Source of the DNA: Candidatus Sulfotelmatobacter sp.
Lineage (GTDB): Bacteria > Chloroflexota > Limnocylindria > Limnocylindrales > CSP1-4
Direction: 5' to 3'
Length of the DNA stretch: 64,000 nucleotides
Assembly: GCA_035622975.1 (NCBI GenBank)
Contig: DASPUH010000133.1
Location: 966 to 64,965, forward strand
The notes beneath the pieces were generated by a model, which saw nothing but the letters and a program-made list of their open reading frames with translations, was not told the DNA's origin and searched no databases. How positions within the stretch are numbered: the stretch's first letter is position 1; every line of letters begins with the position of its first letter. The position numbers were made by a program, and so were the translations under genes. This document shows, one piece after another, positions 2,902 through 42,256 of this stretch.

Positions 2902-2997
2902 CCTCGGATGATACGGCCGGGCGCGCCGCGACCGGGCGGGAGGGTTGCCGTGCACCCTCCGTCGACCACGACGTCCGCGTGCCCACACGGGAGATCG

Positions 2998-3104
2998 GCT
3001 CGGATCAGGCCGGTCCGCGGCACCCGGCGAGCAGCGCTTATCGCTGCTTCCTTCCGGACCTGACGAGGTTCGCGCGTCGCCGCTGCGCGGGACCCGATCC
3101 TCAA
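2998..3104 (-). ncRNA. ffs: signal recognition particle RNA (4.5S/ffs-type, small)
   Basis: Minus strand carries the invariant domain IV motif GUCAGGUCCGGAAGGAAGCAGC (plus 3041-3062). A closing helix joins GGAUCGGGUCC with GGACCGGCCUGAUCC. Located immediately upstream of dnaX, the conserved position. Confidence 0.7.
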
Positions 3105-3231
3105 CGTCGATCACCCCGGCGGCATCCGCGAACGCGGGCCTCGGGAGGGGATTCAGTCCTGCTGGAGCGGATTGCAGGTACAGGGCACCGCTAGTTCCCC
3201 ACCTAGCACGGCCCGCGGATGATAGTCCCTC

Positions 3232-5167: not shown

Positions 5168-5255
5168 TGGCGGAGAGGGAGGGATTCGAACCCTCGATGG
5201 GTTGCCCCATACCGCATTTCCAGTGCGGCGCCCTCGGCCACTAGGCGACCTCTCC
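5168..5255 (-). tRNA. tRNA-Ser (anticodon GGA), type II with long variable arm
   Basis: Minus-strand read GGAGAGGTCGCCTAGTGGCCGAGGGCGCCGCACTGGAAATGCGG...GGTTCGAATCCCTCCCTCTCCGCCA. 7-bp acceptor stem, CCA encoded, anticodon loop CTGGAAA. Confidence 0.85.
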
Positions 5256-5269
5256 GGGGGCTCGTGGAG

Positions 5270-5356
<87 letters not shown>

Positions 5357-9827: not shown

Positions 9828-9920
<93 letters not shown>

Positions 9921-10319: not shown

Positions 10320-10358
10320 ATGCTCCGCACCTGGTACTTTCTCGGCCCGGCACGCTAG
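10320..10358 (+). CDS. putative aro-operon leader peptide MLRTWYFLGPAR (consecutive Trp-Tyr-Phe codons)
   Basis: ATG 10320, TGG-TAC-TTT at 10332-10340, TAG at 10356-10358. SD-like GGGAG 2 nt upstream (short spacer). A TTGACG-N17-TACCGT promoter-like pair at 10284-10312 would make the transcript nearly leaderless. It is the C-terminal part of a longer, unlikely 88-aa ORF (10092..10358). Confidence 0.5.
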   Translation: MLRTWYFLGPAR

Positions 10359-10423
10359 ACCGCGGGTGACCCGCGGGGACGGGTCGTGTCGGGCGAGCAG
10401 AGGTCTCGGACCTCTGCTTTTTT
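10359..10423 (+). promoter_or_regulatory. transcription attenuator for the aro operon: hairpin CCGCGGG-TGA-CCCGCGG then intrinsic terminator GCAGAGGTC-TCG-GACCTCTGC followed by TTTTTT
   Basis: 7-bp/3-nt-loop hairpin at 10360-10376 immediately after the leader stop. 9-bp/3-nt-loop hairpin at 10397-10417 followed by six T (10418-10423). This lies 65 nt upstream of the DAHP synthase start. A U-run terminator is conspicuous in a 70% GC genome. Confidence 0.6.
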
Positions 10424-10487
10424 GTTCCCCGGACGCTGGAAGGCCACCCGGGATCGGATCGCATCACCTGACGCCAAGGGGCGAGCG

Positions 10488-17447: not shown

Positions 17448-18524
17448 ATGATCGAACGGCTGGCCGACCGGGCCCTCAACCGCACGGTCGGCCGGCCCCT
17501 GCCACCGGTACGCGAGGACGTCGCCGCCTTCCACGCGTCCATCCCGGTGGTCGACCTGCTGGTGGGCACCCTCCTCTTCCGCCGCGCGGTCGACCGACGC
17601 CTGCAGCACGGCCATGTCGACCTGCCACGGGCGCGCGAGGGTGGCCTGGACCTGGCCGGGTTCACCATCGCGACGCGGTTCCCGGACGAGCGAGGGGTCC
17701 TCTCCGCACCGCATTTCGCCACGCTAGGCCTCGCTCCGTGGCGGGGCTCGCCGATCGAGCTGGTGGAGGCGCTGGTCCACCGGCTCGAGGGCTGGGCGGC
17801 CGGGTCGGGCGGCCGGTTCGTGCTGGCTCGCGCGGCGGCCGACCTCGGGGCGGTCGGCCGGGATGGGGCGCTGCGCGCGTTCATCGGCGTGCAGGGCGGC
17901 CAGGCGGTCGGCGGCGACCTGCGCAACGTGGCCCGCCTCCGGGCGCTGGGCGTGCGCATGCTGGGCCTCGCCCACATCATGGACTCGGCGCTGGCCGGCT
18001 CCGGCTCCGGCCGGGACGCAGGCGGCCTCACGGGCTTCGGCCGCGAGGCGGTCGCCGAGTGCGAGGCCCAGGGCATCCTCGTCGACCTGGCCCACGCTTC
18101 GCCGGCCACGATCCGTGACGCCGTGCCGCTCCTGAGCCGGCCGTTCCTCGTCAGCCACACCGGGTTCACGGCGCTGGCCGGTGGCCGCAGCGGGTGGCGC
18201 CGCTACAGCCCGGCCACGCGGAACATCGCGGACGCGGAGGCGCACCTCGTGGCGGAGGCCGGCGGGCTCATCGGCGTGACGCTCGCGGCTCCCCTGATCG
18301 GCGGGGCGACGGTGGAGGCGGTGGTGCGAAGCTTCGAGCACGCCCTGGAGCTGGCCGGCCCTGCCCAGGTGGCGCTGGGCTCCGACTTCGACGGCGCCCT
18401 GACCATGCCATTCGACGTGCGCGGGCTGCCCTCGCTGACGCAGGGCCTCCTGGACGCGGGGCTGGGCCCCGACGTGGTAGCCGCCGTGATGGGCGGCAAC
18501 GCCCTACGGGTGCTGCGCGCCTGA
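17448..18524 (+). CDS. membrane dipeptidase, peptidase family M19
   Basis: 358 aa. HGHVDLPRAREGGLDLAGF, GVRMLGLAHIMDSALAGS, LVDLAHASPATIRDAV, LVSHTG, ALGSDFDG match the renal-dipeptidase family pattern. Last gene in line with the aro operon (7-nt gap). Confidence 0.7.
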   Translation: MIERLADRALNRTVGRPLPPVREDVAAFHASIPVVDLLVGTLLFRRAVDRRLQHGHVDLPRAREGGLDLAGFTIATRFPDERGVLSAPHFATLGLAPWRGSPIELVEALVHRLEGWAAGSGGRFVLARAAADLGAVGRDGALRAFIGVQGGQAVGGDLRNVARLRALGVRMLGLAHIMDSALAGSGSGRDAGGLTGFGREAVAECEAQGILVDLAHASPATIRDAVPLLSRPFLVSHTGFTALAGGRSGWRRYSPATRNIADAEAHLVAEAGGLIGVTLAAPLIGGATVEAVVRSFEHALELAGPAQVALGSDFDGALTMPFDVRGLPSLTQGLLDAGLGPDVVAAVMGGNALRVLRA

Positions 18525-19361
18525 CCAGCGTCCGGCGCGGGCGAGCTGCCCCGCGAGCCGCGCCATCCGTGGTACGTCGCGACCGTCGGGGCCGAGCGCG
18601 TCCACCAGCGCGGACGCGACGATGACCCCATCGACCGAGCGGGCCAGGCGCCGCACGTGGGCCGGCCGCGAGACACCAAAGCCGACCGCCACCGGGCCGT
18701 GGGCGACCGCGCGGACCTGGCCCAGGAACTGCGTCACGTCACGCGGCAGCCGGCTGCGGGCGCCGGTAACGCCGACGAGCGAGACGGTGTACAGGAAGCC
18801 GCCCGTGGTGGCGGCGATGTGGGCGCGGCGGGTGGGCGGGGTCGTCGGGGTGACGAGGTAGACGAGCGCGAGGCCCGCCTCGCGCGCCGCGGCCTCCACC
18901 GGTGCGCCCTCGTCCGGCGTCAGGTCAGCCAGGATGACGCCACTGGCCCCGGCCGCCGCCAGCCGCCCGAGGCGGCGAGCAGGATCGCCGTCGCCGAGCG
19001 CCTGGTTGACATAGGCCATCGGCACGAGCGGCGTGTCCGGCCGCGCCTGGTGGATCGCCCCCAGCAGCTCCACCGAGCGATCGAACGTCGCCCCGTTCCG
19101 CAGTGCCACCGCGGAGGCGCGCTGGAGCGTGGTGCCGTCGGCGAGCGGGTCGCTGTACGGCAGGCCCAGCTCCATGGCGTCCGCTCCGGCATCGATCGAG
19201 GCGAGCGCCACCTCCAGGCTGGTGGCGGCGTCGGGGTAGCCGGCCACGACGTAGGGCACGAACGCGACGCGGCGGTCGCGGGCGGCGCGGGCGAACGCGG
19301 CGTGCAGACGCTCCGCGCCGGGCGTCTCATCGGTCCCCCGCACGGCGGTGGTGGCGGTCAC
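18504..19361 (-). CDS. trpA: tryptophan synthase alpha chain
   Basis: 285 aa. FVPYVVAGYPD, MELGLPYSDPLADG, GFGVS. The 3' end overlaps the convergent dipeptidase by 21 nt. Confidence 0.9.
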   Translation of the reverse strand: MTATTAVRGTDETPGAERLHAAFARAARDRRVAFVPYVVAGYPDAATSLEVALASIDAGADAMELGLPYSDPLADGTTLQRASAVALRNGATFDRSVELLGAIHQARPDTPLVPMAYVNQALGDGDPARRLGRLAAAGASGVILADLTPDEGAPVEAAAREAGLALVYLVTPTTPPTRRAHIAATTGGFLYTVSLVGVTGARSRLPRDVTQFLGQVRAVAHGPVAVGFGVSRPAHVRRLARSVDGVIVASALVDALGPDGRDVPRMARLAGQLARAGRWSGAQHP

Positions 19362-22162
19362 GCCGACCCGCCTGCGCCATCGCCCAGCACGCCGAGATCC
19401 TTGTCGCCGCGTCCGGACAGGCCCAGCAGGACGACCGAGCCGCCGGCCAGCGGCGGCCGGCCGGCCGAGCCGGTCAGCAGGCGGGGCAGGGCGGCGATGG
19501 CATGGGCGGGCTCCAGGGCCGGGATGATGCCCTCGGTGCGGGTCAGCAGGCGCATCGCGTCCACCGCCTCCGTGTCGGTCGCAGCCAGCACCTCAAGCCG
19601 CCCCGCGGCGTAGAGCGCGGAGAGCTGGGGCCCGATGCCGGGGTAATCGAGCCCGGCGCTGAGCGAGACGGCCTCCACGACCTGGCCGTCGGCGTCCTGG
19701 AGCATGTACGAGCGGGAGCCGTGGAGGATGCCCGGTGTGCCGCCGGCCAGCGCCGCCGCGTGCCGCCCGGTGGCCAGTCCCTCCCCGGCCGCCTCCACCC
19801 CTACGAGGCGGACGGCCGGCTCGCCGATGAAGCGTGACAGGAGCCCGAGCGCGTTCGAGCCGCCGCCGAGGCACGCGACCGCCACGGCCGGCAGCCGACC
19901 CTCCATCTCGAACAGCTGCACCGCGGCCTCGTCACCGATGCGACGCTGGAGGTCGCGCACGATCAGCGGGTAGGGATGCGGCCCGACCGCCGACCCCAGG
20001 ACGTAGTGGGTGGTGGCCACGTTGGTGACCCAGTCGCGCATCGCCTCGTTGACCGCGTCCTTCAGCGTGGCGCTGCCGCTCGTGACGGTCACCACGTCAG
20101 CCCCCAGGGCCCGCATGCGCAGCACGTTGGGCGCCTGGCGCCGGATGTCCTCGGCACCCATGTAGACGACGCATGGCAGGTCCAGCAGGGCGCAGGCGGT
20201 GGCCGTCGCGACGCCGTGCTGCCCGGCGCCCGTCTCGGCGATGACCCTGGTCTTGCCCAGGCGGCGAGTGAGGAGGGCCTGGCCGAGCGCGTTGTTGATC
20301 TTGTGGGCCCCAGTGTGGTTCAGGTCCTCGCGCTTGAGCCAAAGGTGGATCGCGCCCGCGTCCCGTCCCGCTTGGCGAGCCACGGCCGCGGCGAGCCGAT
20401 CCGCCCGGTAGAGCGCCGACGGACGACCGACGTACCGCGTCCCGAGCTCCCGGAGCTGGGCCCAGTAGCGGGGATCGGCGCGGACGGTCGACCAGGCTGC
20501 CTCGAGCTGCTCGAGCGCGTTGACCAGCGTCTCAGGCACGTACCGGCCGCCGAACGCGCGGTCCGTGCCCCATCGGCCGTGGTCATCCACCTCCACCAGG
20601 CCGGGCGCGACGGGGCTCGGCCGCGCGGCGACCGTCGGGCGGTCGAAGCGGGCGGCCCTGGCGCGCTTGACGAAGAGGGCCGTCCGGAACGGGTCCTTGC
20701 GCGGGCGCTGGCCCGGCCGGCGCGGCAGGTCGGTGCCCGACGCCACGTCGACGCCGGTGGCGGACACGGCCAGCACCGCCTCACCGACGGTGGCGGGATC
20801 AAGGCCGCCAGCGAGGATGACCGGCACCTCGCGGGCGACGGCCGCCGCGACGGCGCGATCCACCGCCACGCCGGTTCCCCCGGCGTGCAGCCCGCCGGCG
20901 GCGTCCAGCAGCACTCGCTCGACCGGCGGCAGCGCGAGCCAGCCCTGGATGCTCGCCACGAGCTCCGGTGCGGCCCGGTCGGCATGGACCGTCTTCCAGA
21001 CGGGTCGCCCGACGGCGGCCACGACCTCCGGCGGCTCGTCCCCTGAGCACTGCACGGCGTCGGGATCGAGGGCGTCGACGAGGGCTGCCAGGTCGGCCGC
21101 CGACGCGTCCGCCGTGACCGCCACGAGGCGCGGCGTCGACCCTGTGCGAGACGCCCGCAGCAGGCCGGCGAGGGCCGCGGCCCCCGGCAGCTCCAGGCAA
21201 CGGGGCGTGCCTGGCACCACGTTGAGGCCGACCGCGTCGGCACCGGCACGGACGGCGGCCAGCAGCCCGTCCTCGTCGGTGACGCCGCAGATCTTGACGA
21301 GCGGCCCGCGGGCGTACGCGGCCGCGTCATCTGGCACCGCGCCGGCTGCCTCGAGGACGCGGGCAGCGGCTTCCGGCTCCCCCGCCCGCATGAGCGCCTC
21401 GCCGACTAGCACCGCGTCCACGCCGAGCGCGCGCAGGTCGCGCACGGCCGCCGCGTCACGGATCCCCGACTCGGCCACCACGACCCGGTCACGGGGCACG
21501 CAACCGACCAGGGCCACCACCCGCACGGGGTCGACCGCGAGGGTCCGCAGGTCCCGCGCGTTGAGGCCGATGACCCGGGCCGGCGTGCCGAGCGCTCGTT
21601 CCAGCTCCCGCTCGTCATGGGCCTCGACCAGCGGCTCCAGGCCCAGGTCCAGGGCCTGGCGCACGAGCCGCGCCAGCCGGGCCGCCGGATGGAGCGCGGC
21701 CAGCAGCAGGACGGCGTCCGCGCCGGCCAGCCGCAGCTGCGGCAGCTGGCGGGGGTCGACCACGAACTCCTTGGCCAGCACCGGCAGGGCCACGGCCGCG
21801 CGCACGAGGCGCACGTCATCCAGTGAGCCCCCGAAGTGGCGGGGCTCGCACAGCACCGAGATGGCGGCGGCGCCCCCGGCCGCGTACGCGCGCGCCCGCT
21901 CCGCCACGTCGAGGTCTGCGCCAGCCAGCCGGCCCGCGGACGGCGAGGCACGCTTGACCTCCGCGATCAGACGCGTGCCTGGCGCCGCCAGGCGCTCCGC
22001 GAAGGGGCGCGGCGGAGCCGCTCGGCGCGCGTCCCGCCGCAGCTCGTGGAGCGAGGCCCCGCCGAGCTCAGCCAGCACGTCGGCCTGTCGCTGCGCGGCG
22101 ATCCGGCCGAGCACGCCGAGGCGCGCGGCCGGCGGCCGGACGCGAGGCGCGACCACGGTCAT
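19358..22162 (-). CDS. trpCFB: single ORF encoding indole-3-glycerol-phosphate synthase (TrpC), phosphoribosylanthranilate isomerase (TrpF) and tryptophan synthase beta (TrpB)
   Basis: 935 aa from ATG 22160-22162 (overlaps the trpD stop as ATGA). TrpC region: LIAEVKRASPSAG...ESGI. TrpF region: LVKICGVTDEDG...VDVASG. TrpB region: FGGRYVPETL...LNHTGAHKINN...GGGSNA. No stop codon between domains. The upstream 130 aa of ORF 19358..22552 were rejected. Confidence 0.8.
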   Translation of the reverse strand: MTVVAPRVRPPAARLGVLGRIAAQRQADVLAELGGASLHELRRDARRAAPPRPFAERLAAPGTRLIAEVKRASPSAGRLAGADLDVAERARAYAAGGAAAISVLCEPRHFGGSLDDVRLVRAAVALPVLAKEFVVDPRQLPQLRLAGADAVLLLAALHPAARLARLVRQALDLGLEPLVEAHDERELERALGTPARVIGLNARDLRTLAVDPVRVVALVGCVPRDRVVVAESGIRDAAAVRDLRALGVDAVLVGEALMRAGEPEAAARVLEAAGAVPDDAAAYARGPLVKICGVTDEDGLLAAVRAGADAVGLNVVPGTPRCLELPGAAALAGLLRASRTGSTPRLVAVTADASAADLAALVDALDPDAVQCSGDEPPEVVAAVGRPVWKTVHADRAAPELVASIQGWLALPPVERVLLDAAGGLHAGGTGVAVDRAVAAAVAREVPVILAGGLDPATVGEAVLAVSATGVDVASGTDLPRRPGQRPRKDPFRTALFVKRARAARFDRPTVAARPSPVAPGLVEVDDHGRWGTDRAFGGRYVPETLVNALEQLEAAWSTVRADPRYWAQLRELGTRYVGRPSALYRADRLAAAVARQAGRDAGAIHLWLKREDLNHTGAHKINNALGQALLTRRLGKTRVIAETGAGQHGVATATACALLDLPCVVYMGAEDIRRQAPNVLRMRALGADVVTVTSGSATLKDAVNEAMRDWVTNVATTHYVLGSAVGPHPYPLIVRDLQRRIGDEAAVQLFEMEGRLPAVAVACLGGGSNALGLLSRFIGEPAVRLVGVEAAGEGLATGRHAAALAGGTPGILHGSRSYMLQDADGQVVEAVSLSAGLDYPGIGPQLSALYAAGRLEVLAATDTEAVDAMRLLTRTEGIIPALEPAHAIAALPRLLTGSAGRPPLAGGSVVLLGLSGRGDKDLGVLGDGAGGSA

Positions 22163-23211
22163 GCGGTGGCTGCCGGGGCCGCGGCTTCGGCGGCGGCCCG
22201 CCGGGCGCGCAGGCGGGTGAGGAGCGCTGCGGCCGCCCCCGAGTCGATGGTCCGGGCGGCCAGCTGGGTGCCGGCGCGCAGCGTCGCCGCCCGGCCGGCG
22301 ACCTGCAGCGCGGCCGCCGCGTTGAGCACGACGACCGCGCGGCGCGGGCCCTCCGCACCGCCGAGCAGGGCCTCGATGAGGCGCGCGTTCTCGGCCGGCG
22401 TGCCGCCGCGCAGGGCCTCCGTCGGCACGACCGGCAGGCCCAGTTGGCGCAGGTCGGCGGCCGTCACAGCCTGTCGGGTGATGCCGCCCGGCCTCACGTC
22501 GTGGATGATCCCGCTGCCGTCCAGCGGCAGCTCGTCGACGCGGTCGCCGCACACCACGAACGTGCGCTCGGTGCCCAGCTCGCGGGCTACCGCCGCGATG
22601 GCCGCGGCTACGGTGACGTCGGCCACGCCCAGGAGTTGACGGCGCACGCCGGCCGGGTTGGTCAGCGGACCGACCAGGTTGAACGCGGTTCGAACGCCGA
22701 TCTCGCGGCGCGTCGGTCCCGCGTGACGCATCGCAGGGTGGAAGCCAGGCGCGAACAGGAAGGCGAAGCCGTCCTCGCGCAGCGCCTCGGCCGCCGCGTC
22801 GGGGGTCTGCTCGACCGTCACGCCGAGGGCGTCGAGGACGTCCGTGGAGCCGGACGCGGAGGTGATCGCCCGGTTGCCGTGCTTGGCCACCGGCACACCC
22901 GTGGCGGCCACGACGAGCGCCGCGGCGGTGCTGATGTTGAACGTGCCGCTCCCGTCACCCCCGGTGCCCACCACGTCGATCGCCCCTGCGGGCGCAGTGA
23001 CCCGCAGGACGCGCTCGCGCATGACGGTGGCGAACCCGGTCAGCTCCTCCACCGTCTCACCGCGCACCCGCAACGCCATGAGGAGCGCCGCGATCTGGGA
23101 CGGCGTCGCCTCGCCGTCCATGACCTGGGTCATCGCGGCGCGAGCCTCCTCGCGCGTCAGGCTCTGGCCCTCGACGATCGCTGCCAGCGCGGCGCGGACC
23201 GCGTCGCTCAT
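22159..23211 (-). CDS. trpD: anthranilate phosphoribosyltransferase
   Basis: 350 aa. GTGGDGSGTFNISTAAALVVAATGVPVAKHGNR. Confidence 0.9.
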   Translation of the reverse strand: MSDAVRAALAAIVEGQSLTREEARAAMTQVMDGEATPSQIAALLMALRVRGETVEELTGFATVMRERVLRVTAPAGAIDVVGTGGDGSGTFNISTAAALVVAATGVPVAKHGNRAITSASGSTDVLDALGVTVEQTPDAAAEALREDGFAFLFAPGFHPAMRHAGPTRREIGVRTAFNLVGPLTNPAGVRRQLLGVADVTVAAAIAAVARELGTERTFVVCGDRVDELPLDGSGIIHDVRPGGITRQAVTAADLRQLGLPVVPTEALRGGTPAENARLIEALLGGAEGPRRAVVVLNAAAALQVAGRAATLRAGTQLAARTIDSGAAAALLTRLRARRAAAEAAAPAATA

Positions 23212-23918
23212 CTGGTCGCACCGGCGGGCGCCGCCAGCCCGTGCGTGGCGAAGCCCGTCGCGGCCGCCGCGTCAAGGATGTCGGCATGGCCCTGGCCGGT
23301 CAGGCGGAGGAAGTTGGCCAGGATGCGCGGCCCGGCCGGCGTGAGGACGGACTCGGGGTGGAACTGCACGCCCTCCAGTGGCAGGGTCCGGTGGCGCATC
23401 GCCATGACCACTCCGTCGGCGGTGCGACCGGTGACCTCGAGGGTCACCGGCAGGGTGCCCTCATCGACCGTCAGCGAGTGGTATCGCGCGGCGGGAAAGG
23501 GCGAGGGCAGGCCCTCCAGCAGGCCCCGGCCGTCATGGATGATCTCGCTGGCCTCGCCGTGGACCAGCGTCGGCGCACGAGCGATGGTCGCCCCGAAAGC
23601 GGCACCCAGGCACTGGTGGCCCAGGCACACCCCGAGCAGCGGGATCCCCCATGCCGCCGCGACCTCCACGGCGGCCACGGAGACGCCGGCCGAGCCCGGC
23701 TCACCGGGTCCGGGCGAGATGACGATGCCCGCCAGGCGGTCGTCATGTGGCCCGGCGCCTGCCGCCTCCCGCGCCAGGGCCTCCAGGCTCTCCCGATCGA
23801 GGGCGTCGTTACGGACGACGCGCAGGGCGGCTCCGGCGACCTCGAGCGCCTGGACGAGGTTGAAGGTGAAGCTGTCGTAGTTGTCGATGACGAGGATCAC
23901 CCGTTCACCCCGCTCCAT
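23208..23918 (-). CDS. trpG: anthranilate synthase component II (glutamine amidotransferase)
   Basis: 236 aa class I GATase. GVCLGHQ catalytic Cys, HPES. Overlaps trpD and trpE by 4 and 14 nt. Confidence 0.88.
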   Translation of the reverse strand: MERGERVILVIDNYDSFTFNLVQALEVAGAALRVVRNDALDRESLEALAREAAGAGPHDDRLAGIVISPGPGEPGSAGVSVAAVEVAAAWGIPLLGVCLGHQCLGAAFGATIARAPTLVHGEASEIIHDGRGLLEGLPSPFPAARYHSLTVDEGTLPVTLEVTGRTADGVVMAMRHRTLPLEGVQFHPESVLTPAGPRILANFLRLTGQGHADILDAAAATGFATHGLAAPAGATR

Positions 23919-25551
23919 GGTGCGTCACGAGCGACGGGCCGTTCGTCGCGCCGGTCGCCTCGGCGGCCGCCGCGAGCGCGCCGCGCATGGCCGCCGCCTT
24001 GTGCTCGGTCTCCTCGAACTCGCTGGAGGGGACGCTGCCCGCCACGATCCCCGCTCCGGCGTGCAGGTGGAGCGCGCCGTCGCGCAGGACCGCCGAGCGG
24101 ATGGCGATGGCTGTATCCAGGTTGCCGTCGTAGCCCAGGTAGCCGACGGCGCCCCCGTAGATGCCGCGCCGCTCGCCCTCGAGCTGGGCGATGAGTTGCA
24201 TCGCGCGGACCTTCGGGGCGCCGGACAGCGTGCCGGCCGGGAACACGCTGCGCAGCGCATCCAGCGCGTCGAGGCCCGGCCGCAGGCGGCCCTCCACGTG
24301 GCTGACCAGGTGCAGGACGTGGCTGTAGCGCTCGACCTCCATGTACCGCGTGACCGCCACCGATCCGGCCACCGCCACCCGGCCCAGGTCGTTGCGCCCG
24401 AGGTCGACCAGCATGACGTGCTCGGCGCGCTCCTTGGGGTCGCGCTGCAACTCGTCGGCGATGCGCTCGTCCTCGCGCTCGTCGGCGCCCCGCGGGCGCG
24501 TGCCCGCGATGGGGTGCGTGGTGAGCGCATCACCCTCGACCCGCAGGAGGAGTTCGGGGCTCGCGCCGACGACCTCGAATGCCGGATGGCGCACGTAGAA
24601 GAGGTACGGGCTGGGGTTGATGCGCCGCAGCGCACGGTACAGGTCCAGGCCGCCGAGGGGCCGACCGTCGGGCCGCGTCGGGAGGGCCATCGTCTGGCGG
24701 CGGGCGAGCACGATCTGGATCGCCTCGCCGGCGGCGATGGCCTGCTTGGCGGCGACGACCGCCGATTCGTACGCGTCGCGGCTCAGGCTTGCCTCGACCG
24801 CAGCCGTGCGGCCGGGGGCGCCGCCCGTTCCGGGCCGGGCCACGACCTCCTCGAGCTCCGATCGGCTCGGCCGCCGGGTCCGTTCCAGGGCCTCGAAGAT
24901 GGCCCGCTCGGCGACGCGGTAGCGGCCTTCGAGGTCGGGTGCCGCGGTATGGAGCGACGCGATCGCCGAGAGGGTCTGGGTCAGGTGGTCGAAGACCAGC
25001 ACGAGATCGGTCTCCAGGAACGCGGCGAGCGGCACCGCGACGGGATCCCGGGCCGGCTGCGTCACGGGCTCGAAGCAGCCGACGGCGTCATAGGCCAGCA
25101 CCCCGACGGCGCCCCCCGTGAACCGCGGCATCTCGCTGGTGGGCGCGACGCGGCGGCGAGGCGCAAAAGCCCGCAGCGCGGCCAGCGGGTCGGTCGCTTC
25201 GGCCGTCGTGGTCGGCAGGTCGGGCGTGTACGTGTCGACCGAGAGGGGGCGCGTGGTGATGCGCGCGCTGGCGCCCGTGACCTCCAGGACGCGACGCGGC
25301 GAGACACCCAGGAAGGAATAACGGCCCACCCGCTCGCCACCCTCCACCGACTCGAGCAGGTAGCACGGCCCGCCGTCGTCCAGGCGCAGGAGGGCGCCCA
25401 TCGGCGTCTCCAGGTCGGCCGCCCGCGACGCGCGCAGCAGGATCGTGTCGGCGTTGCCGGCCAGGCGGCGCGTCTCGGTGATGCTCAGCGGGTCGGGCAG
25501 GGCCATGGCGGTGCGTGTTCCTTCAGTGCGCCGGATGAGGCCGGGAATCAC
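23905..25551 (-). CDS. trpE: anthranilate synthase component I
   Basis: Chorismate-binding enzyme motifs (LESVEGGERVGRYSF, GAVGYLGYDG, IRS). Start placed at GTG 25549-25551 with SD GAAAGG 5 nt upstream. An internal ATG at 25506 is the alternative start. Confidence 0.85.
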   Translation of the reverse strand: MIPGLIRRTEGTRTAMALPDPLSITETRRLAGNADTILLRASRAADLETPMGALLRLDDGGPCYLLESVEGGERVGRYSFLGVSPRRVLEVTGASARITTRPLSVDTYTPDLPTTTAEATDPLAALRAFAPRRRVAPTSEMPRFTGGAVGVLAYDAVGCFEPVTQPARDPVAVPLAAFLETDLVLVFDHLTQTLSAIASLHTAAPDLEGRYRVAERAIFEALERTRRPSRSELEEVVARPGTGGAPGRTAAVEASLSRDAYESAVVAAKQAIAAGEAIQIVLARRQTMALPTRPDGRPLGGLDLYRALRRINPSPYLFYVRHPAFEVVGASPELLLRVEGDALTTHPIAGTRPRGADEREDERIADELQRDPKERAEHVMLVDLGRNDLGRVAVAGSVAVTRYMEVERYSHVLHLVSHVEGRLRPGLDALDALRSVFPAGTLSGAPKVRAMQLIAQLEGERRGIYGGAVGYLGYDGNLDTAIAIRSAVLRDGALHLHAGAGIVAGSVPSSEFEETEHKAAAMRGALAAAAEATGATNGPSLVTHHGAG

Positions 25552-25805
25552 GACGACCTTTCGTCCTCCGGGACGAAAGGTCGTGCCTTCCGCGGTGCCA
25601 CCCGCCTTCGACGACCAGTCCGGTCGTCGCGCTCTGCCGACGGACCGCGCGGCGGTCGATCGGTGCTGCCCTGGTAACGCTGGCGCCCTGCGCCGGAGCC
25701 TACCGGGCGGACCTTGGTCCGCCGTTCGGTCCGGGGCTCACGGGTCCATTCCCCGCCGCCCTCGCTCCGGCTTGCACCAGCCGCCGGTTCTCTTGGCCGA
25801 GGATC
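25549..25805 (-). promoter_or_regulatory. T-box riboswitch leader, Trp-specific (UGG specifier); its 3' helix overlaps the trpE SD and GTG start (translation-level, actinobacterial-type)
   Basis: Minus-strand RNA carries T-box sequence GGGUGGCACCGCG (plus 25591-25603), where UGGC would pair with NCCA of a G73 tRNA. A 14-bp helix CACGACCUUUCGUCC/GGACGAAAGGUCGU (plus 25549-25585) contains AAAGG and the GUG start. Upstream there are Stem I-like elements: AGAGA, GGUGCAA distal loop, specifier loop GGGAAUGGAC. Confidence 0.65.
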
Positions 25806-25973
25806 GTCGGGTACTCGTCCCGTTCACAGCCGTCTTCAGTTGTGGAGCGCGAGTCTAGGCGGGGCCCGGAAGGGTGTCAACGACGACATGCCGTGTGGTG
25901 GCCGGCGACTCGGTCTGGCCAGCGGATGCGCGGTGCGCTAACGTCCGACCGGCATGCTGACGGTGGTGGGCAG

Positions 25974-37743: not shown

Positions 37744-37829
37744 TGGCGGAGAGGGTGGGATTCGAACCCACGAGGCTTTCGCCCGGCGGTTTTCAAGACC
37801 GCTGCCATCAACCACTCGGCCACCTCTCC
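37744..37829 (-). tRNA. tRNA-Ser (anticodon TGA), type II
   Basis: 86-nt minus-strand read GGAGAGGTGGCCGAGTGGTTGATGGCAGCGGTCTTGAAAACCGCCGGGCGAAAGCCTCGTGGGTTCGAATCCCACCCTCTCCGCCA. Anticodon loop CTTGAAA. Confidence 0.85.
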
Positions 37830-37854
37830 GCGGCAGAGGATACCCCGGGGTGCC

Positions 37855-37921
37855 CGGCGCTCAGATGCGCCTGGCGTGCAGATGCGCCTGGCGTGCAGAT
37901 GCGCGTGGCGCTCAGATGCGC
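37855..37921. repeat. four tandem copies of a 17-nt unit CAGATGCGCNTGGCGNN covering the RDD gene stop codon
   Basis: CAGATGCGC at 37862, 37879, 37896 and 37913 (period 17). The last copy supplies the real RDD stop (TCA at 37912-37914). Each copy contains an antisense TGA. Lies between the RDD 3' end and the tRNA-Ser 5' flank. Confidence 0.7.
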
Positions 37922-38394
37922 TTGATGACGACGGTGCCGGCGATCAGGTCGTGCCAGCCGCGCTTGCGGCTGTCGATGAGGATCCAGATGTAGCCCAGGT
38001 AGAACACGACGCCGTCGATCCAGTAGCCGATCAGGCGCAGGATGGCCTGGCCCGTGGTGATCGGGCCGCCGTCTCGATCCCGCACCACGTAGAGCTGGAA
38101 CGGGCGCATGCCCGGCGTCTGGCCGCGGGTCGCCCAGAAATAGGGGAAGTAGGCCAGGTCGACCACGAAGATGGCCAGGAAGACAAGGAGTCCCAAGGGC
38201 AGGGCCAGGATGACGAGCGCGATGGCGGCCAGGAAGAGGCCGATGTTCGCAGCCAGGACGACCAGGCCGTCGATGAGGTAGGCCAGCAACCGTTCCCCGG
38301 CCCCGCCGAAGGCGACCCCGGGCGCCGGCCCCTCGGGCTCGACCGGGCGAGCCCAGGCGGATGGGGGCATCTGGTCGGGGGGTCGGGACTCCAC
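37912..38394 (-). CDS. RDD family membrane protein
   Basis: 160 aa, 3 TM helices. RDD-type motifs (RLLAYLIDGLVV...RGWHDLIAGTVVIK). Confidence 0.7.
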   Translation of the reverse strand: MESRPPDQMPPSAWARPVEPEGPAPGVAFGGAGERLLAYLIDGLVVLAANIGLFLAAIALVILALPLGLLVFLAIFVVDLAYFPYFWATRGQTPGMRPFQLYVVRDRDGGPITTGQAILRLIGYWIDGVVFYLGYIWILIDSRKRGWHDLIAGTVVIKRI

Positions 38395-38403
38395 GGGCCC
38401 AGT

Positions 38404-39705
38404 CTACGCCCCGAGGCGGGCCGTCCCCATGGCGTCCCGCAGCACTTCCGGGACGACGACCGTGCCATCCGGCTGCTGATGGACCTCCAGGATGGCGGCC
38501 ACCGTCCGCGCCAGAGCCAGGCCCGAGCCGTTGAGCGTATGCAGGACCTCCGGCCGTGCCCCCGGCTCCGGCCGCCAGCGGATGTTCATGCGCCGGGCCT
38601 GGTAGTCGCGGAAGTTGGAGACGGAGCTCACCTCCAGCCAGCGCTCCACGCCCGGCGCCCACACCTCGAGGTCGTACTTCTTGGCCTGCACGAAGCCCAT
38701 GTCGCCGGTCGCCATCAGCTTCACCCGGTAGGGCAGCTCCAGCCGCTGCAGGACCACCTCTGCCCGCGCCGTGAGCCACTCCAGCGTGGCGTTCGAATCT
38801 GCCGGCCGCTCGAAGCAGACCATCTCCACCTTGTCGAACTGGTGGACGCGGAGGATGCCGCGCGTGTCCCGGCCGGCCGCCCCTGCCTCGCGACGGAAGC
38901 ACGGCGAGTAGGCCACGTAACGGATGGGCATCCGCTCCGCCTCGATGATCTCGTCGCGATGGATGTTCGTGACGGGCACCTCGGCGGTCGGCACGAGGTA
39001 CAGGTCGTCGCGCGTCACGACGTACATGAGGTCTTCCTTGTCGGGGATCTGGCCCGTCCCCCGCGCCGACGCCTGGTTGACCAGGGCCGGCGGCCAGATC
39101 TCCGTCATGCCGTGCTCGCGCACGTGCAGGCCGACCATGAAGTCGATCAACGCCCGCTGCAGGGCCGCGCCCGCGGCGCGGTAGATGGGGAAGCCCGACC
39201 CGGTCACCTTGGCCCCTGCCTGGAGGGCCAGGATGCCCTGCGCCTCGCCGACCTCCCAGTGCGGTCGCACGGTCGACCCATCGGCCCGTTCGTGGGAGGC
39301 GGCCTCACCCCAGGTGCGGACGATGACGCTGGCATCCTCCCCGCCAACGGGGACATCCGGATCGGCCGGGTTGGGGATGCGCAGGAGGAGCTCCTCCAGC
39401 TCGTGCTCGGCGGTGGCGATCCGCGCCCCCATCGCCGTGATGGCGGTGCCGAGCGCATCGGCCCGCCGGCGCGTCTCCGCGAGCGCGGGGTCGTCCGGGC
39501 TGGCCCCCCCGCGGATGGCCGTGCCGACCTCCGCGCTCAGGCGGTTGCGTTCGGCCTTGAGTGCGTCGGCCTCGCTGGTCAGCCGCCGCCGGTCCGCGTC
39601 GAGCTCGAGGGCCTGGTCCACGATGGATGCATCCTCGCCCTTGTCGAGCGCTCCCTGGCGCACCCGCGCCGCGTCCTCGCGCAGTCGTTGCAGGCCGACG
39701 CTCAT
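38404..39705 (-). CDS. serS: serine--tRNA ligase
   Basis: 433 aa. N-terminal coiled coil, class II motifs (FRREAG, GLALARTVAAILE). Confidence 0.9.
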   Translation of the reverse strand: MSVGLQRLREDAARVRQGALDKGEDASIVDQALELDADRRRLTSEADALKAERNRLSAEVGTAIRGGASPDDPALAETRRRADALGTAITAMGARIATAEHELEELLLRIPNPADPDVPVGGEDASVIVRTWGEAASHERADGSTVRPHWEVGEAQGILALQAGAKVTGSGFPIYRAAGAALQRALIDFMVGLHVREHGMTEIWPPALVNQASARGTGQIPDKEDLMYVVTRDDLYLVPTAEVPVTNIHRDEIIEAERMPIRYVAYSPCFRREAGAAGRDTRGILRVHQFDKVEMVCFERPADSNATLEWLTARAEVVLQRLELPYRVKLMATGDMGFVQAKKYDLEVWAPGVERWLEVSSVSNFRDYQARRMNIRWRPEPGARPEVLHTLNGSGLALARTVAAILEVHQQPDGTVVVPEVLRDAMGTARLGA

Positions 39706-41318
39706 GCCGGCACCCCGGCCGTTGCCGCCTCGATGGGCCGCCAGCCGGCCGCCTCGCGCAGGCGTGCCACCACCGCCTCCTGGGGCTGGGCCGCCAGGAG
39801 CCAGCCGGCACGGGGCCCGTTGGGCCGACCCAGGAACGCGACGTAGATCGCGGCGAACGCCTTGCCGGACGGCAGCCCGCCCTCATGGGCCACGCGGAAG
39901 ATGAGGTCCTGCCACGCGTCACCGGCCGTCGGGCGGGCCTGCTCGGCGGCGACGGCGAGGGCGCCCAGGTAGACCCGCTGGTCATCGCCCAGTTCGCGCA
40001 CCTCTCCCGGCAGGGTCGTCCGCACCGCCACCTTGTAACGGTCGGGGGCCAGGGCGGCCAGCCACGCCCGCGCCACGGTCACCCGCTGGGCCTGGATGGC
40101 GCGCTCGGCGGCGTCGAGGGGGGCACCCTTCTCCGCCTCCAGCTGGGCCGCCAGGTCCACGCCCGGCACCTGGGCGAGGAGGGCCAGGTGGCGGAAGGCC
40201 GGCCGGAAACGGGCCGCCTCCGCCGCCGGATCGGCCTCGGCATCCACCAGGCTCATGCGGAAGATGCGGCCGGGATCGGGCGGCAGTTCGCCGCGGACCT
40301 CGTGGCCGGCGGCAGCCCCGGCGATGCGGTCGAACTCATCGAACAGGCCGGGGACGGTGTCGCCCTCCGGATCGAATTCGAGGTGCTTGCGCGGCCTGTG
40401 GCGCAGGAACAGGAATCGCAGCAGCTCGGGCGGCAGCAACTCGGCGATCTCGTGGGCGGCGGCGCCGGAGCCCTTGCTGGTGCTCATCTTCTTGCCCCCG
40501 ATGGTGAGGAACTCGTACGGCACGTTGGTCGGCGGTTCCCTGTCGAAGACCCGCCGGCTGATGGCGTCGGCGCGGTCGCGCGAGCCGCCCTTCGTGGCCA
40601 GGTCCTTGCCGCACCCTTCGATCGTCGCCCCCACGAGGCCCCAGCGAGCGGCCCAGTCGACGTTCCACACCAGCTTGGCACGTCCGCCGAAGGGCGAGAC
40701 CCGGCCGTGGAAACCGCAGCCCCTGGCCCACTCGACAAGGTCCGCCCGGCACTCGTACGTCACCTCCCGGCCGTCCCAGTCGCTGGCGATGGTCGTGCCG
40801 CTGCGGCCACAGGCCTCGCAGATGACGCTGATCGGCAACCAGTGGGCCGGGTGGTCGACGGTGCTGACCGTGCGGTAGATGTCGCGGATGACGTCGGCGT
40901 GGTCAAGGGCCCGGCTGATGTAGGGGTCCATGTCGCCGGCCGCGTACCGCTCACTCATCCAGTAGAGCTCCGGCCGGATCCCCAGACCCTCGAAGGTGCC
41001 CAGGAAGAGGCCCACGAAGTGCCGCGCGTAGTTGGGGGCGCTGCTCCCGGCAGGAGCCGGGACGTTCGCCAGGGGCACGCCCATGTAGCGCTCGACGGCG
41101 TCGGGCGTGAGCAGCGCCTGCGCGTCCATGGGGTCCAGGTCCTCCACGCCGTAGCGGAAGGTGACCGGGGTCTCGCGGTCCAGGAGCGCCCGGCGGATGG
41201 CGTCGTGCAGCACGACGCCCCGCAGGCTGCCCACGTGGACGGTGCCCGACGGCGTCTTGGAGTCGTTGACGACCTGCGGTCCCTGCGCCACGGCCGCCAG
41301 TTCGTCGGCCCAGTACAT
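39702..41318 (-). CDS. lysK: lysine--tRNA ligase, class I (archaeal/spirochaete type)
   Basis: 538 aa. HIGH-like HVGSLRG, KMSKS as KMSTSKGS, zinc-binding CEACGRSG. Length and order typical of class I LysRS. 4-nt overlap with serS. Confidence 0.75.
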   Translation of the reverse strand: MYWADELAAVAQGPQVVNDSKTPSGTVHVGSLRGVVLHDAIRRALLDRETPVTFRYGVEDLDPMDAQALLTPDAVERYMGVPLANVPAPAGSSAPNYARHFVGLFLGTFEGLGIRPELYWMSERYAAGDMDPYISRALDHADVIRDIYRTVSTVDHPAHWLPISVICEACGRSGTTIASDWDGREVTYECRADLVEWARGCGFHGRVSPFGGRAKLVWNVDWAARWGLVGATIEGCGKDLATKGGSRDRADAISRRVFDREPPTNVPYEFLTIGGKKMSTSKGSGAAAHEIAELLPPELLRFLFLRHRPRKHLEFDPEGDTVPGLFDEFDRIAGAAAGHEVRGELPPDPGRIFRMSLVDAEADPAAEAARFRPAFRHLALLAQVPGVDLAAQLEAEKGAPLDAAERAIQAQRVTVARAWLAALAPDRYKVAVRTTLPGEVRELGDDQRVYLGALAVAAEQARPTAGDAWQDLIFRVAHEGGLPSGKAFAAIYVAFLGRPNGPRAGWLLAAQPQEAVVARLREAAGWRPIEAATAGVPA

Positions 41319-41325
41319 GACCGCC

Positions 41326-41790
41326 TCAGCGGATGGCGACGACGGTGTAGGTCGAGTCCCCGCCGGGCACCGAGATGATCACCCTGTCGCCCTTGCGGCG
41401 GCCGATGAGGGCCCGCCCCACCGGCGACTCGTTGGAGATGCGCCCATCGCGCGGGGCTGCTTCGGCCGACCCGACGATGGTATAGGTCTCCTTGCCGTCG
41501 GCCGACTCGACGTCCACCGTGGACCCGATCTGCACGAAATCGGTCGAGTGGTGCTCGTCGATGATGATGGCGTTCTTGATGAGCGCCTCCAGGGATTGGA
41601 CACGTCCCTCCACGAAGGCCTGCTCGTTCTTGGCGTCCTCGTACTCCGCGTTCTCGCTCAGGTCGCCGTGCTCCTTGGCGTCCGAGATCCGCGCGGCCAC
41701 TTCGGGGCGGCGCACGTTCTTGAGCTCCTCGAGCTCGTCGCGCAGCTTGGCCAGGCCATCCCTGGAGAGGTAGCTGGGCTTGTTGTTCAC
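41326..41790 (-). CDS. greA: transcription elongation factor GreA
   Basis: 154 aa from GTG (plus CAC 41788-41790) with SD GGGAGGGAG upstream. LRDELEEL...DLSENAEYEDAK...G..V.V. The upstream part of ORF 41326..42138 was rejected. Confidence 0.85.
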   Translation of the reverse strand: MNNKPSYLSRDGLAKLRDELEELKNVRRPEVAARISDAKEHGDLSENAEYEDAKNEQAFVEGRVQSLEALIKNAIIIDEHHSTDFVQIGSTVDVESADGKETYTIVGSAEAAPRDGRISNESPVGRALIGRRKGDRVIISVPGGDSTYTVVAIR

Positions 41791-42052
41791 GAGGGGGCTC
41801 CCTCCCGGGTGACGCGGCCAGCGGCCCGACGGCACGGCCGTCACGGGCCACGAGGTGGTCGTGATAAGCAGAACGAACCCCCGATCGCGCATGGGTCTTG
41901 CGCGTGGGAGTTCGACCGTGCGCGGATTGTAGGAGGGCGCACCCGGAGCGTCAATCGAGCGCCCCCTTCCGACGGGCGCGTTCGGGCCGATGGGCCCTTG
42001 CGGGCCGCGACCGGCCGGTGCTAGAACGACGCCACGGTCAGGAGGTCCGCCA

Positions 42053-42256
42053 ATGGCTGCCAAGGTCGGAGACAGGATCATCGTCGAGTCGGAGAAGGTG
42101 GGCACGCGAGCCCGGGAGGGCGAGATCCTCGAGGTCATCTCCTCGCCGCTCGGAGACCACTACACGGTGCGCTGGGCGGATGGTCACGAGAGCGGGTTCC
42201 GCCCGAGCGCGGGCAGCACCACGATCGTGGCGCCGCGGAGCCCCAAGCCCGCCTGA
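42053..42256 (+). CDS. DUF1918 domain protein
   Basis: 67 aa, MAAKVGDRIIVESEKVGTRAREGEILEV...YTVRWADGHES. AGGAGG SD 7 nt upstream of ATG 42053. Confidence 0.6.
   Translation: MAAKVGDRIIVESEKVGTRAREGEILEVISSPLGDHYTVRWADGHESGFRPSAGSTTIVAPRSPKPA

Follow-up and report, generated by a model that had tools for sequence, protein, structure and literature searches.

The window, meaning the whole 64,000-nucleotide stretch of DNA analyzed here, carries a tryptophan biosynthesis operon on its minus strand. Its first gene, trpE, encodes anthranilate synthase I (533 aa; 23905..25506), an assignment based on Pfam domains, a conserved N terminus, third-position GC content (GC3) and the product record. It is followed by trpG (glutamine amidotransferase; 23208..23918), trpD (anthranilate phosphoribosyltransferase; 22159..23211), a single open frame with trpC (IGPS), trpF (PRAI) and trpB domains (19358..22552) and trpA (tryptophan synthase alpha; 18504..19361). 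The true start of the trpC-F-B frame is probably near 22150, and the predicted TrpC-F-B fusion is conserved, the three domains also lying in one frame in loci L196 and L093. Upstream of trpE, a -35 box TTGACA (25875..25880, minus strand) and a -10 box TAGACT (25852..25857, minus strand), separated by 17 nucleotides, match the promoter consensus at 10 of 12 positions. This is the sole promoter-like site between 25300 and 26000, where shuffled sequences yield 0.1 on average, and a TA(G/T/C)ACT box is found 104 to 110 nt upstream of the specifier described below in 17 relatives.

The closest TrpE relatives (67 to 81% identity) all belong to Chloroflexota/Ca. Limnocylindrales, and the window has a GC content of about 73% and encodes a large-type SRP RNA. 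The sequence thus identifies the host as a high-GC member of the Chloroflexota, in the Ca. Limnocylindrales group. An actinobacterial origin was rejected from the TrpE relatives and the SRP RNA, and the actinobacterial context invoked in the initial annotation is not supported.

The region between the promoter and trpE matches the T-box model RF00230 over its full length (25566..25836, minus strand; model positions 1 to 219 of 219; 64 bits), with E = 1.8e-13 in a local scan and 1.4e-11 over the full 64-kb window. The leader had been called a T-box from motifs seen on the minus strand, the core, AGAGA, the distal loop and a UGG specifier followed by A. All of them are present, and the covariance-model search suggested as a check returned this significant match. 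The score is below the Rfam 15 gathering score of 93, and therefore a default Rfam scan, which applies this cutoff, reported no T-box in the window; detection required running the RF00230 search in E-value mode. Orthologous matches in eight relatives likewise score 44 to 76 bits, all below 93, and wherever the DNA preceding trpE is available from a close relative, it contains an orthologous T-box. We attribute the low scores to high GC content and lineage-specific insertions. As the 10 T-boxes of the clade that were scored, window and relatives together, all reach only 44 to 76 bits, threshold-based annotation misses them in high-GC Chloroflexota.

An RNAalifold consensus computed for the complete leader reproduced Stem I, but spurious long-range pairing gave a wrong 3′ domain; we therefore wrote the canonical structure by hand onto an alignment of 24 leaders and counted pairs on it. 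Paired cells amounted to 97.5% over the 24 leaders, compared with 27 to 52% when the partners were slid, and 11 pairs were changed on both sides, as against 3.7 ± 1.2 in shuffles, none of 500 of which equaled the observed number. The leader is identical across three metagenome contigs, which made a comparison of strain variants uninformative.

Stem I (25735..25831, minus strand) consists of a GA/K-turn base, GGCUGUGAA...GUGAGCC, the specifier loop, an AG bulge, AGAGA (25793..25789, minus strand), and the distal loop UGGUGCAAG (25779..25771, minus strand). The bulge and the distal loop are both conserved and flanked by covarying helices, and together they are predicted to form the platform for the tRNA elbow. 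Stem I is thus of full length with both elbow-binding loops, an architecture typical of transcriptional T-boxes (PMC7583486). Seven of its pairs are changed on both sides in the alignment, for example columns 35-74 (UA in 14 leaders, CG in 7), 52-65 (CG in 13, UA in 11) and 47-70 (CG in 10, UA in 9).

The specifier is UGG (25746..25748, minus strand), followed by the purine A at 25745. It lies in the context GGGGAAUGGACCC (25754..25742, minus strand), which the model aligns as GAA-UGG-A-CC, the GAA-UGG-A segment spanning 25751..25745. The sequence GAAUGG(A/C)CCC is kept in each of the 33 relatives whose available sequence extends far enough upstream. UGG is the Trp codon, in agreement with the downstream trpEGD(CFB)A pathway. 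The Trp specificity proposed for the leader, and its position as the control element of a trp operon, are therefore upheld.

Stem I is followed by Stem II (CCGGACCGAA...GGUAGGCUCCGG; 25693..25734, minus strand), with invariant base pairs and a distal part of variable length, and by a region aligned to the IIA/B element of RF00230 (CGCAGGGCGCCAGCGUUA; 25675..25692, minus strand) that is nearly invariant in 23 of the 24 leaders. Between Stem IIA/B and Stem III, 23 of the 24 leaders carry a lineage-specific extra hairpin (25637..25663 in the window, minus strand), an insertion relative to the Rfam model. Its base, CCGAUC...GUCGG, is constant, while its top, 29 to 84 nt long, is variable but forms a helix in every one of them. 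Stem III is extended to 8 bp (CGACGACC/GGUCGUCG; 25609..25632, minus strand; columns 300-318, GC in 23 leaders and AU in 1).

The T-box core GGGUGGCACCGCG (25591..25603, minus strand) contains the UGGC bulge, which is predicted to pair with the 3′ GCCA of the tRNA. It is invariant among relatives except for UGGU in L010 and L169. The discriminator of tRNA-Trp is G, which pairs with C or wobbles with U according to TBDB (PMC7778990), and the UGGC bulge would fit a tRNA-Trp with such a discriminator. A search for a tRNA-Trp gene in the window and 37 related loci found none; the G73 discriminator of this lineage is thus taken from the general literature.

The core lies within an antiterminator (25569..25604, minus strand) composed of helix A1 (CGGG/CCCG), a 7-nt bulge and helix A2 (GCGGA/UUCGU). 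It can pair in 24 of 24 leaders, with a stability of only -6.9 kcal/mol on its own. The antiterminator and the adjacent hairpin (25553..25584, minus strand; -24.0 kcal/mol) overlap, the 3′ strand of the former and the 5′ arm of the latter having CCUUUCGUCCC in common, and the two structures are therefore mutually exclusive. The hairpin was initially described as a perfect 14-bp helix at 25549-25585, an extent that includes a GUG codon. The 14 bp, closed by a 4-nt CGGA loop, are indeed perfect, but the helix ends at 25553 and leaves the GUG outside. All 35 relatives folded form such a hairpin, with energies of -16 to -25 kcal/mol, that of the window being among the strongest of the family, surpassed only by L193. 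Compensatory changes fall in the part of the hairpin outside the antiterminator, with ACGACC/GGUCGU replaced by ACGGCC/GGCCGU in four loci and CG/GC by AU/AU in L168. For the 3′ domain (69 nt), the predicted folding energy is -38.2 kcal/mol (z = -4.1 relative to shuffles).

Directly after the helix lies a degenerate U-rich tail, CGUGAUUCCCGG (25541..25552, minus strand), which holds the in-frame GUG at 25551..25549. The consensus of this segment among relatives is UYUUGAUUCUC. Each of the 23 aligned relatives has a tail whose best 8-nt segment contains at least five U residues; with 13.4% T in the window DNA, the chance probability of five or more in eight is about 0.002. The tail of the window, with only three or four, is the weakest in the family, and its first 9 nt differ from those of L003 and L004 by a single T-to-C change. 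The TBDB rule for terminators, five U in seven, holds for just 9 of the 24 leaders in the alignment and not for the window, and a consensus terminator scan of the leader found no terminator-like site and no canonical U-tract. Thus, the reported lack of a U-tract is accurate for a canonical tract, but the tail is U-rich in the relatives. The trpE loci of lower-GC Chloroflexota (L012, L023, L042 and L050) combine a T-box core and a hairpin with a clean U-tract. Over the whole window, canonical terminators are not enriched, with 11 found where about 9 are expected, and intrinsic termination is thus poorly characterized in this lineage. Alternatively, a GGAA lying 5′ of the helix can pair with the tail, extending the helix by GGAA:UUCC. 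We take the hairpin to be a probable intrinsic terminator; termination at this site may be inefficient in the source genome, whose U-tract has eroded further than any other in the family.

The position of the trpE start bears on the role of this hairpin. AAAGG, at 25561..25557 (minus strand) in the 3′ arm, is followed 5 nt further on by GUG 25551..25549, which is open in frame to ATG 25506. It had been proposed that trpE starts at GTG 25551 rather than ATG 25506 and that the helix sequesters this Shine-Dalgarno (SD) sequence. We compared 36 orthologous leaders, of which 35, window included, entered the frame analysis, having set aside 91 metagenome loci with a T-box core but no trpE downstream. 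In nearly all relatives, trpE starts 69 to 143 nt past the T-box core with its own SD and start codon. Both lie 17 to 90 nt further downstream, outside the helix and at a variable distance from it, with GGAGG, GAGG or AAGG upstream of the conserved start. The relatives start three to five codons ahead of a (D/S)P(L/I)S motif that is conserved among them, a position equivalent to ATG 25506, as illustrated by the N termini MALPDPLSI in the window and MALTDPLSL in L006. The corresponding SD in the window is GAAGGA (25519..25524, minus strand), and the SD-to-start segment has homologous counterparts in L007, L107 and L111. This SD is predicted to be mostly unpaired, about 30 nt past the helix, and no conserved pairing that would sequester it, with the tail or another element, was found.

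Conversely, the features of the upstream site are not those of a translation start. An NTG flanks the helix in 21 of the 35 leaders, and in six, window included, it is in frame and open, close to the one third expected by chance; in L003 and L004 this GUG is present but out of frame. The peptide between GTG 25551 and ATG 25506 is conserved neither in length nor in sequence. GC3 is 10/15 (67%) over these 15 codons compared with 93% in trpE, where none of 519 sliding 15-codon windows is as low. The database record contains the 533-aa TrpE product and not a 548-aa product. The frame analysis, the conservation of the N terminus, GC3 and the gene-call record all argue against GTG 25551 as the trpE start, and by comparison with its orthologs trpE begins at ATG 25506, with its own SD outside the helix. 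AAAGG is the complement of the 5′-arm sequence CCUUUC, which is altered in only 1 of the 24 aligned leaders, while the 3′ arm varies among relatives (AUCGG, AACGG, ACGG, GAGAGG). The initial annotation was correct that AAAGG and an in-frame GUG are present at the helix in the window, but the orthologs argue that they do not serve trpE, and a variable 3′ arm, a conserved U-rich tail and an SD and start outside the helix speak against an SD-sequestering function.

The tails of the orthologs, the layout of the SD and start, and GC3 lead us to favor a class I, transcription-attenuating, Trp-specific T-box riboswitch with a weakened U-tract ahead of the trpE-trpG-trpD-trp(CFB)-trpA operon, an interpretation that we consider likely. 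In the corresponding model, transcription would begin just 3′ of the TTGACA-17-TAGACT promoter. The UGG specifier in Stem I would read the anticodon of tRNA-Trp, while the AG bulge and the distal loop contact its elbow. With uncharged tRNA-Trp, the 3′ GCCA would pair with the UGGC bulge and stabilize the weak antiterminator (25604..25569), allowing RNA polymerase to read through into trpE. With charged tRNA-Trp, the far more stable 14-bp hairpin (25584..25553) would form instead and transcription would halt in the U-rich tail. Translation of trpE would proceed from its own SD, GAAGGA, and ATG 25506, about 46 nt beyond the hairpin.

Other outputs of the switch were weighed against this model. 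A T-box acting on translation, with the helix hiding AAAGG beside a GUG 25551 start until uncharged tRNA-Trp frees it and TrpE gaining 15 N-terminal residues, would account for an SD-like sequence 5 nt before an open in-frame GUG, for its complete pairing in the predicted fold, and for a tail that lacks a canonical U-tract and is the weakest of the family. We nevertheless regard it as very unlikely: AAAGG is the forced complement of a nearly invariant 5′ arm, the 3′ arm is not kept as an SD in relatives, and the in-frame NTG occurs at chance level and is out of frame in L003 and L004. Moreover, the 15-residue extension is unconserved and has a GC3 unmatched in trpE, an SD and start of their own adjoin the conserved N terminus in nearly all relatives, the long Stem I is atypical of translational T-boxes (PMC7583486), and the host is no actinobacterium. 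Just as improbable in our view is a conversion restricted to this genome, in which erosion of the U-tract, the AAAGG of the 3′ arm and a GUG that happens to be in frame would together have created a dual or translational switch that also gates a TrpE isoform longer by 15 residues. If true, it would represent a natural intermediate in the origin of translational T-boxes from transcriptional ones, and a case outside Actinobacteria on a biosynthetic operon.

Less improbable, but still unlikely, is a T-box that switches as described while its hairpin, owing to the eroded U-tract, acts mainly otherwise, be it by pausing with Rho-dependent termination, mRNA stability or processing, weak occlusion of the downstream ribosome-binding region, or action on both transcription and translation. 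The contrast between the weak tail and a hairpin that only L193 surpasses, the possible extension of the helix by GGAA:UUCC pairing and the rarity of canonical terminators in a window of 73% GC are consistent with such an output. However, the tail is one substitution away from that of L003 and L004 over its first 9 nt in a family whose consensus is clearly U-rich, the real SD is predicted to be mostly unpaired about 30 nt past the helix, no conserved element points to Rho or an RNase target, and another attenuator of the same genome, that of the aro operon, has a clean intrinsic terminator. Finally, the degenerate U-tract and the sub-threshold Rfam score might be those of a decaying, non-functional relic, with the trp operon constitutive or under another factor. 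This is extremely improbable, as all functional motifs are intact in more than 30 diverged relatives (TrpE 66 to 75% identical), the helices show compensatory changes, and the low score, shared by orthologs at 44 to 76 bits, is traced to high GC and lineage-specific insertions.

The favored attenuating T-box is nothing new in kind, since Trp T-boxes upstream of trpE have already been reported in Chloroflexi, namely in Dehalococcoides CBDB1 and D. ethenogenes 195 (Wels et al. 2008, PMC2494555). The phylum, regulated gene, riboswitch family and amino-acid specificity are the same; among the lower-GC loci of our comparison, L042 and L050 have the core just upstream of trpE, and L012 and L023 further upstream. 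The window differs by its Ca. Limnocylindrales host of about 73% GC, the extra hairpin between IIA/B and III, the eroded U-tract and the sub-threshold Rfam score. Firmicute examples include the T-box of the Lactococcus lactis trp operon (van de Guchte 1998, as cited in PMC2494555) and the tandem T-boxes of Bacillus trpE mentioned in the same article. They similarly are class I elements with a long Stem I, Stem II, IIA/B, Stem III, an antiterminator/terminator switch and a UGG specifier, ahead of a complete trp operon. In contrast, the window has one T-box and no tandem arrangement, a much higher GC content, and an interrupted U-tract, UYUUGAUUCUC in the family and CGUGAUUCCC in the window, in place of a clean poly-U.

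The actinobacterial ileS T-boxes, translational elements of Sherwood, Grundy and Henkin (2015) as described in PMC7583486, also set a stable helix, not followed by a clean U-tract, in competition with a tRNA-stabilized helix, and in the source genome only, the likeness extends to an SD-like AAAGG and an NTG in and beside the 3′ arm. Unlike in those T-boxes, the SD and start at the helix are unconserved and the real start lies 46 nt downstream with its own SD. The long Stem I retains both elbow loops, whereas a shortened Stem I without them is typical, though not obligatory, of the translational ileS type (PMC7583486), and the phylum, amino acid and gene are others. Among the relatives, the Trp T-box of L010 has no Stem II, Stem I running straight to Stem III. 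This is the layout of glyQS T-boxes lacking Stem II (PMC7583486), with a specifier of UGG (Trp) and not Gly; the window T-box, having Stem II and IIA/B, differs from that type.

The corrected reading of the locus is that of a trp operon from an uncultured Chloroflexota lineage of soil or peat, probably under an ordinary tRNA-Trp T-box, with trpE translated from the annotated ATG; it leaves existing knowledge of T-box mechanisms unchanged. The family illustrates the decay of a terminator U-tract in a genome of 13% T, the rest of the riboswitch remaining intact.

The same genome was also said to control its aro operon by a different, peptide-based attenuator, and such an element is present. A leader peptide, MLRTWYFLGPAR, containing Trp-Tyr-Phe, is encoded at 10321-10359 on the plus strand, followed by the attenuator hairpin and U-tract at 10395-10425 and the aro operon at 10.4-16.7 kb. 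A location of the aro operon near 40 kb was rejected, as that region holds greA, class I lysS and serS. An attenuator made of a hairpin and a U-tract is thus in use in the source genome, which combines two attenuation systems for aromatic amino acids, the trp T-box and the aro Trp-Tyr-Phe leader peptide.

The leader features listed in the initial annotation were all found on the minus strand, within 25900..25480. Read directly from the sequence, they comprise the T-box core GGGUGGCACCGCG with its UGGC bulge (25603..25591), the AGAGA of the Stem I region (25793..25789), the distal loop UGGUGCAAG (25779..25771), the specifier context GGGGAAUGGACCC with UGG (25748..25746) followed by A (25745), and a perfect 14-bp hairpin with a CGGA loop (25584..25553). 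A GUG lies 5 nt past the AAAGG of the hairpin 3′ arm (25551..25549), in the trpE frame, which is open as far as ATG 25506. An Rfam scan with E-value reporting gave a match to the T-box model RF00230 over its whole length (positions 1-219; E = 1.8e-13 in a local scan and 1.4e-11 over the whole window and both strands), though its 64 bits are below the gathering score of 93 bits in Rfam 15, and the default scan at gathering thresholds reported no T-box for the window. UGG falls at the specifier position in the alignment to the model, with the conserved purine next to it. The predicted folding energy of the 69-nt 3′ domain is -38.2 kcal/mol (z = -4.1 relative to dinucleotide shuffles). The discriminator base of tRNA-Trp is G, and its partner in the bulge is C or a wobble U (PMC7778990); the UGGC bulge of the window and the UGGU bulges of the related loci L010 and L169 fit this base.

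Scanning metagenomes for the shared T-box core enlarged the set of loci with trpE downstream to 38, including 36 close relatives. Wherever a close relative has DNA upstream of trpE, a T-box match is found there, with scores of 44-76 bits that never reach the gathering score. As the same is true of the window and of nine relatives in the L001-L010 set, ten of ten Limnocylindrales trp T-boxes scored (44-76 bits versus 93), threshold-based annotation would miss the whole clade. GAAUGG(A/C)CCC was found in all 33 relatives with sufficient upstream sequence. We aligned 24 distinct leaders (alignment A1) and counted pairs on the canonical structure (Stem I, Stem II base, Stem III and lower terminator stem). 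Paired cells amounted to 97.5%, versus 27-52% after sliding the partners by 1-3 columns, and two-sided changes occurred at 11 pairs, versus 3.7 ± 1.2 in shuffles, none of 500 being as high. The antiterminator helices are invariant, yet fully pairable across the aligned leaders.

Stem IIA/B and Stem III are separated by an extra, lineage-specific hairpin outside the Rfam model (25663..25637, minus strand, in the window), which is present in 23 of the 24 leaders. The CCGAUC...GUCGG at its base does not change, while the top, of 29 to 84 nt, remains paired whatever its length. The Trp T-box of L010 (JANWLH010000113.1, a Ca. Limnocylindrales MAG; 2769-2940, plus strand) takes up just 172 nt. Its Stem III follows Stem I almost directly, without Stem II, Stem IIA/B or the extra hairpin, and its specifier and T-box are 46 nt apart, versus 142-193 nt in the other measured leaders (32 relatives and the window). 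This is the minimal architecture of glyQS T-boxes, but with UGG as the specifier.

T-boxes are recognized in Firmicutes, Actinobacteria, Chloroflexi and Deinococcus-Thermus (PMC3766115), and those on trpE and a trpB-like gene in Dehalococcoides, also Chloroflexi, were reported in 2008 (PMC2494555). The window element is a member of this known kind, with minor particularities: its lineage, the extra hairpin, an eroded U-tract and the sub-threshold Rfam score. No mention of Limnocylindria together with riboswitches was found in the literature searched.

The conserved N terminus, the chance-level occurrence of NTG, codon composition and recorded products argue against the proposal that trpE starts at GTG 25551. 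In all relatives a conserved (D/S)P(L/I)S motif is preceded, 3-5 codons earlier, by an ATG or GTG. This start is 69-143 nt away, measured from where the T-box core begins, and in nearly all relatives GGAGG, GAGG or AAGG is found shortly 5′ of it. The N terminus from ATG 25506 is MALPDPLSI (MALTDPLSL in the related L006), and the segment from the Shine-Dalgarno (SD) sequence to this start, GAAGGAACACGCACCGCCAUG, has visible homology to those of the relatives L007, L107 and L111. This SD sequence is predicted to be mostly unpaired. An in-frame, open NTG adjoins the helix in 6 of 35 leaders, the window included; since 21 have any NTG there, this is about the one third that chance predicts. The same GUG is out of frame in the related L003 and L004, and the would-be N-terminal extensions vary in both length and sequence. 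The 15 codons from GTG 25551 to ATG 25506 have a GC3 of 10/15 and a flat GC content of 67% at the three codon positions, whereas GC3 is 93% in trpE, where none of 519 sliding 15-codon windows is as low. Three metagenome contigs have the 533-aa TrpE as their recorded product, whereas the 548-aa product is not on record; this is no more than the choice of a gene caller, but it accords with the ATG 25506 start.

The juxtaposition of AAAGG and GUG had suggested a translational switch, in which the helix hides the SD sequence and the GTG start. We consider this very improbable. AAAGG is simply complementary to the 5′-arm CCUUUC, which is nearly invariant, and it is replaced in other leaders by AUCGG, AACGG, ACGG or GAGAGG; it is therefore not maintained as an SD sequence. 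Each of the 35 relatives folded forms a hairpin (-16 to -25 kcal/mol), and directly 3′ of it the relatives carry a conserved U-rich tail (consensus UYUUGAUUCUC), with at least 5 U in the best 8-nt stretch in 23 of 23 aligned relatives. With 13.4% T in the window DNA, the chance of at least 5 U in 8 nt is about 0.002. The variants UUUCGUUUUCUU, UUUCUAUUUCCC, UUUGUUUCCC and UCUUGUUGUUC keep the U-richness but not the sequence. Compensatory changes are seen in the 5′-arm portion beyond the antiterminator: ACGACC/GGUCGU has changed to ACGGCC/GGCCGU in four loci, and two pairs have switched to A-U in L168. The lower-GC Chloroflexota loci L012, L023, L042 and L050, with a T-box core upstream of a trpE match, have a hairpin followed by a clean U-tract. 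Transcriptional T-boxes are described as requiring a Stem I that is long and has both elbow-binding loops, as found in the window, whereas translational ones mostly have a truncated Stem I (PMC7583486).

The tail of the window itself, CGUGAUUCCCGG, is the weakest of the family: its richest 8-nt stretch has 4 U and its richest 7-nt stretch 3, and a consensus scan identified no terminator-like site after the hairpin. Among the 24 aligned leaders, just 9 satisfy the strict rule of the T-box database (TBDB), 5 U in 7, and canonical terminators are not enriched in the window (11 found versus about 9 expected). For these reasons we infer termination at the T-box from the family pattern rather than regard it as demonstrated. 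A hybrid or termination-independent output would accord with such a tail beside a hairpin among the strongest of the family (-24.0 kcal/mol), but appears unlikely. In its first 9 nt the tail differs from that of L003 and L004 by a single T-to-C change (UCGUGAUUC versus UUGUGAUUC).

The nearest TrpE relatives (67-81% identity) all belong to Chloroflexota / Ca. Limnocylindrales MAGs, and the window encodes a large-type, Bacillus-like SRP RNA (2948-3211, minus strand; 182 bits), which is in keeping with Chloroflexota as the host but not with Actinobacteria. The leader is therefore not actinobacterial. The Trp T-box of the initial annotation stands; support is lacking for its sequestered SD sequence, its GTG start and its analogy with Actinobacteria.

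The best promoter-like site of the region, TTGACA-17-TAGACT, is located at 25880..25852 on the minus strand, and its -10 box is present at equal distance in 17 relatives. Downstream follow trpE, trpG, trpD, a single open frame with trpC, trpF and trpB domains, and a separate trpA. The IGPS, PRAI and PALP domains are encoded in one unbroken frame (19358-22552, minus strand) with a linker of about 40-60 residues ahead of the TrpB part. They also share a single frame in two relatives, L196 (9690-12845, plus strand) and L093 (922-4959, minus strand), and a long open frame occupies the equivalent position in L111; a trifunctional TrpC-F-B fusion is predicted to be conserved in the lineage.

The divergent gene upstream encodes zinc-ribbon, cyclase, AAA and TPR domains. 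Many relatives have a tRNA-Ser(UGA) at 0.1-4 kb from their trp T-box, mostly on its upstream side. In the window the two are 12 kb apart, and tRNA-Ser(UGA) is in a cluster with greA, a class I lysyl-tRNA synthetase gene (PF01921) and serS (37744-42138, minus strand), which suggests a rearrangement or insertion that left the cyclase/AAA/TPR gene adjoining the trp promoter. Three tRNA-Ser genes have sub-threshold matches to RF04351 (Plastid-psbl-rps4 3′UTR) antisense to them, at 5171-5220, 5273-5321 and 9832-9885 (plus strand); these matches are almost certainly artefactual and due to tRNA-like sequence within that model.

The same genome carries a putative peptide attenuator ahead of the aro operon, with genes for DAHP synthase, shikimate dehydrogenase, chorismate synthase and a shikimate kinase-DHQ synthase. 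In this leader region (10321-10425, plus strand), 12 codons specify the peptide MLRTWYFLGPAR and include Trp, Tyr and Phe codons in direct succession; GGGAG lies upstream of them. An 11-bp hairpin (10395-10419) followed by TTTTTTGTT forms a textbook hairpin plus U6 (10395-10425), and the leader looks like a classic ribosome-mediated attenuator that would sense all three aromatic amino acids.
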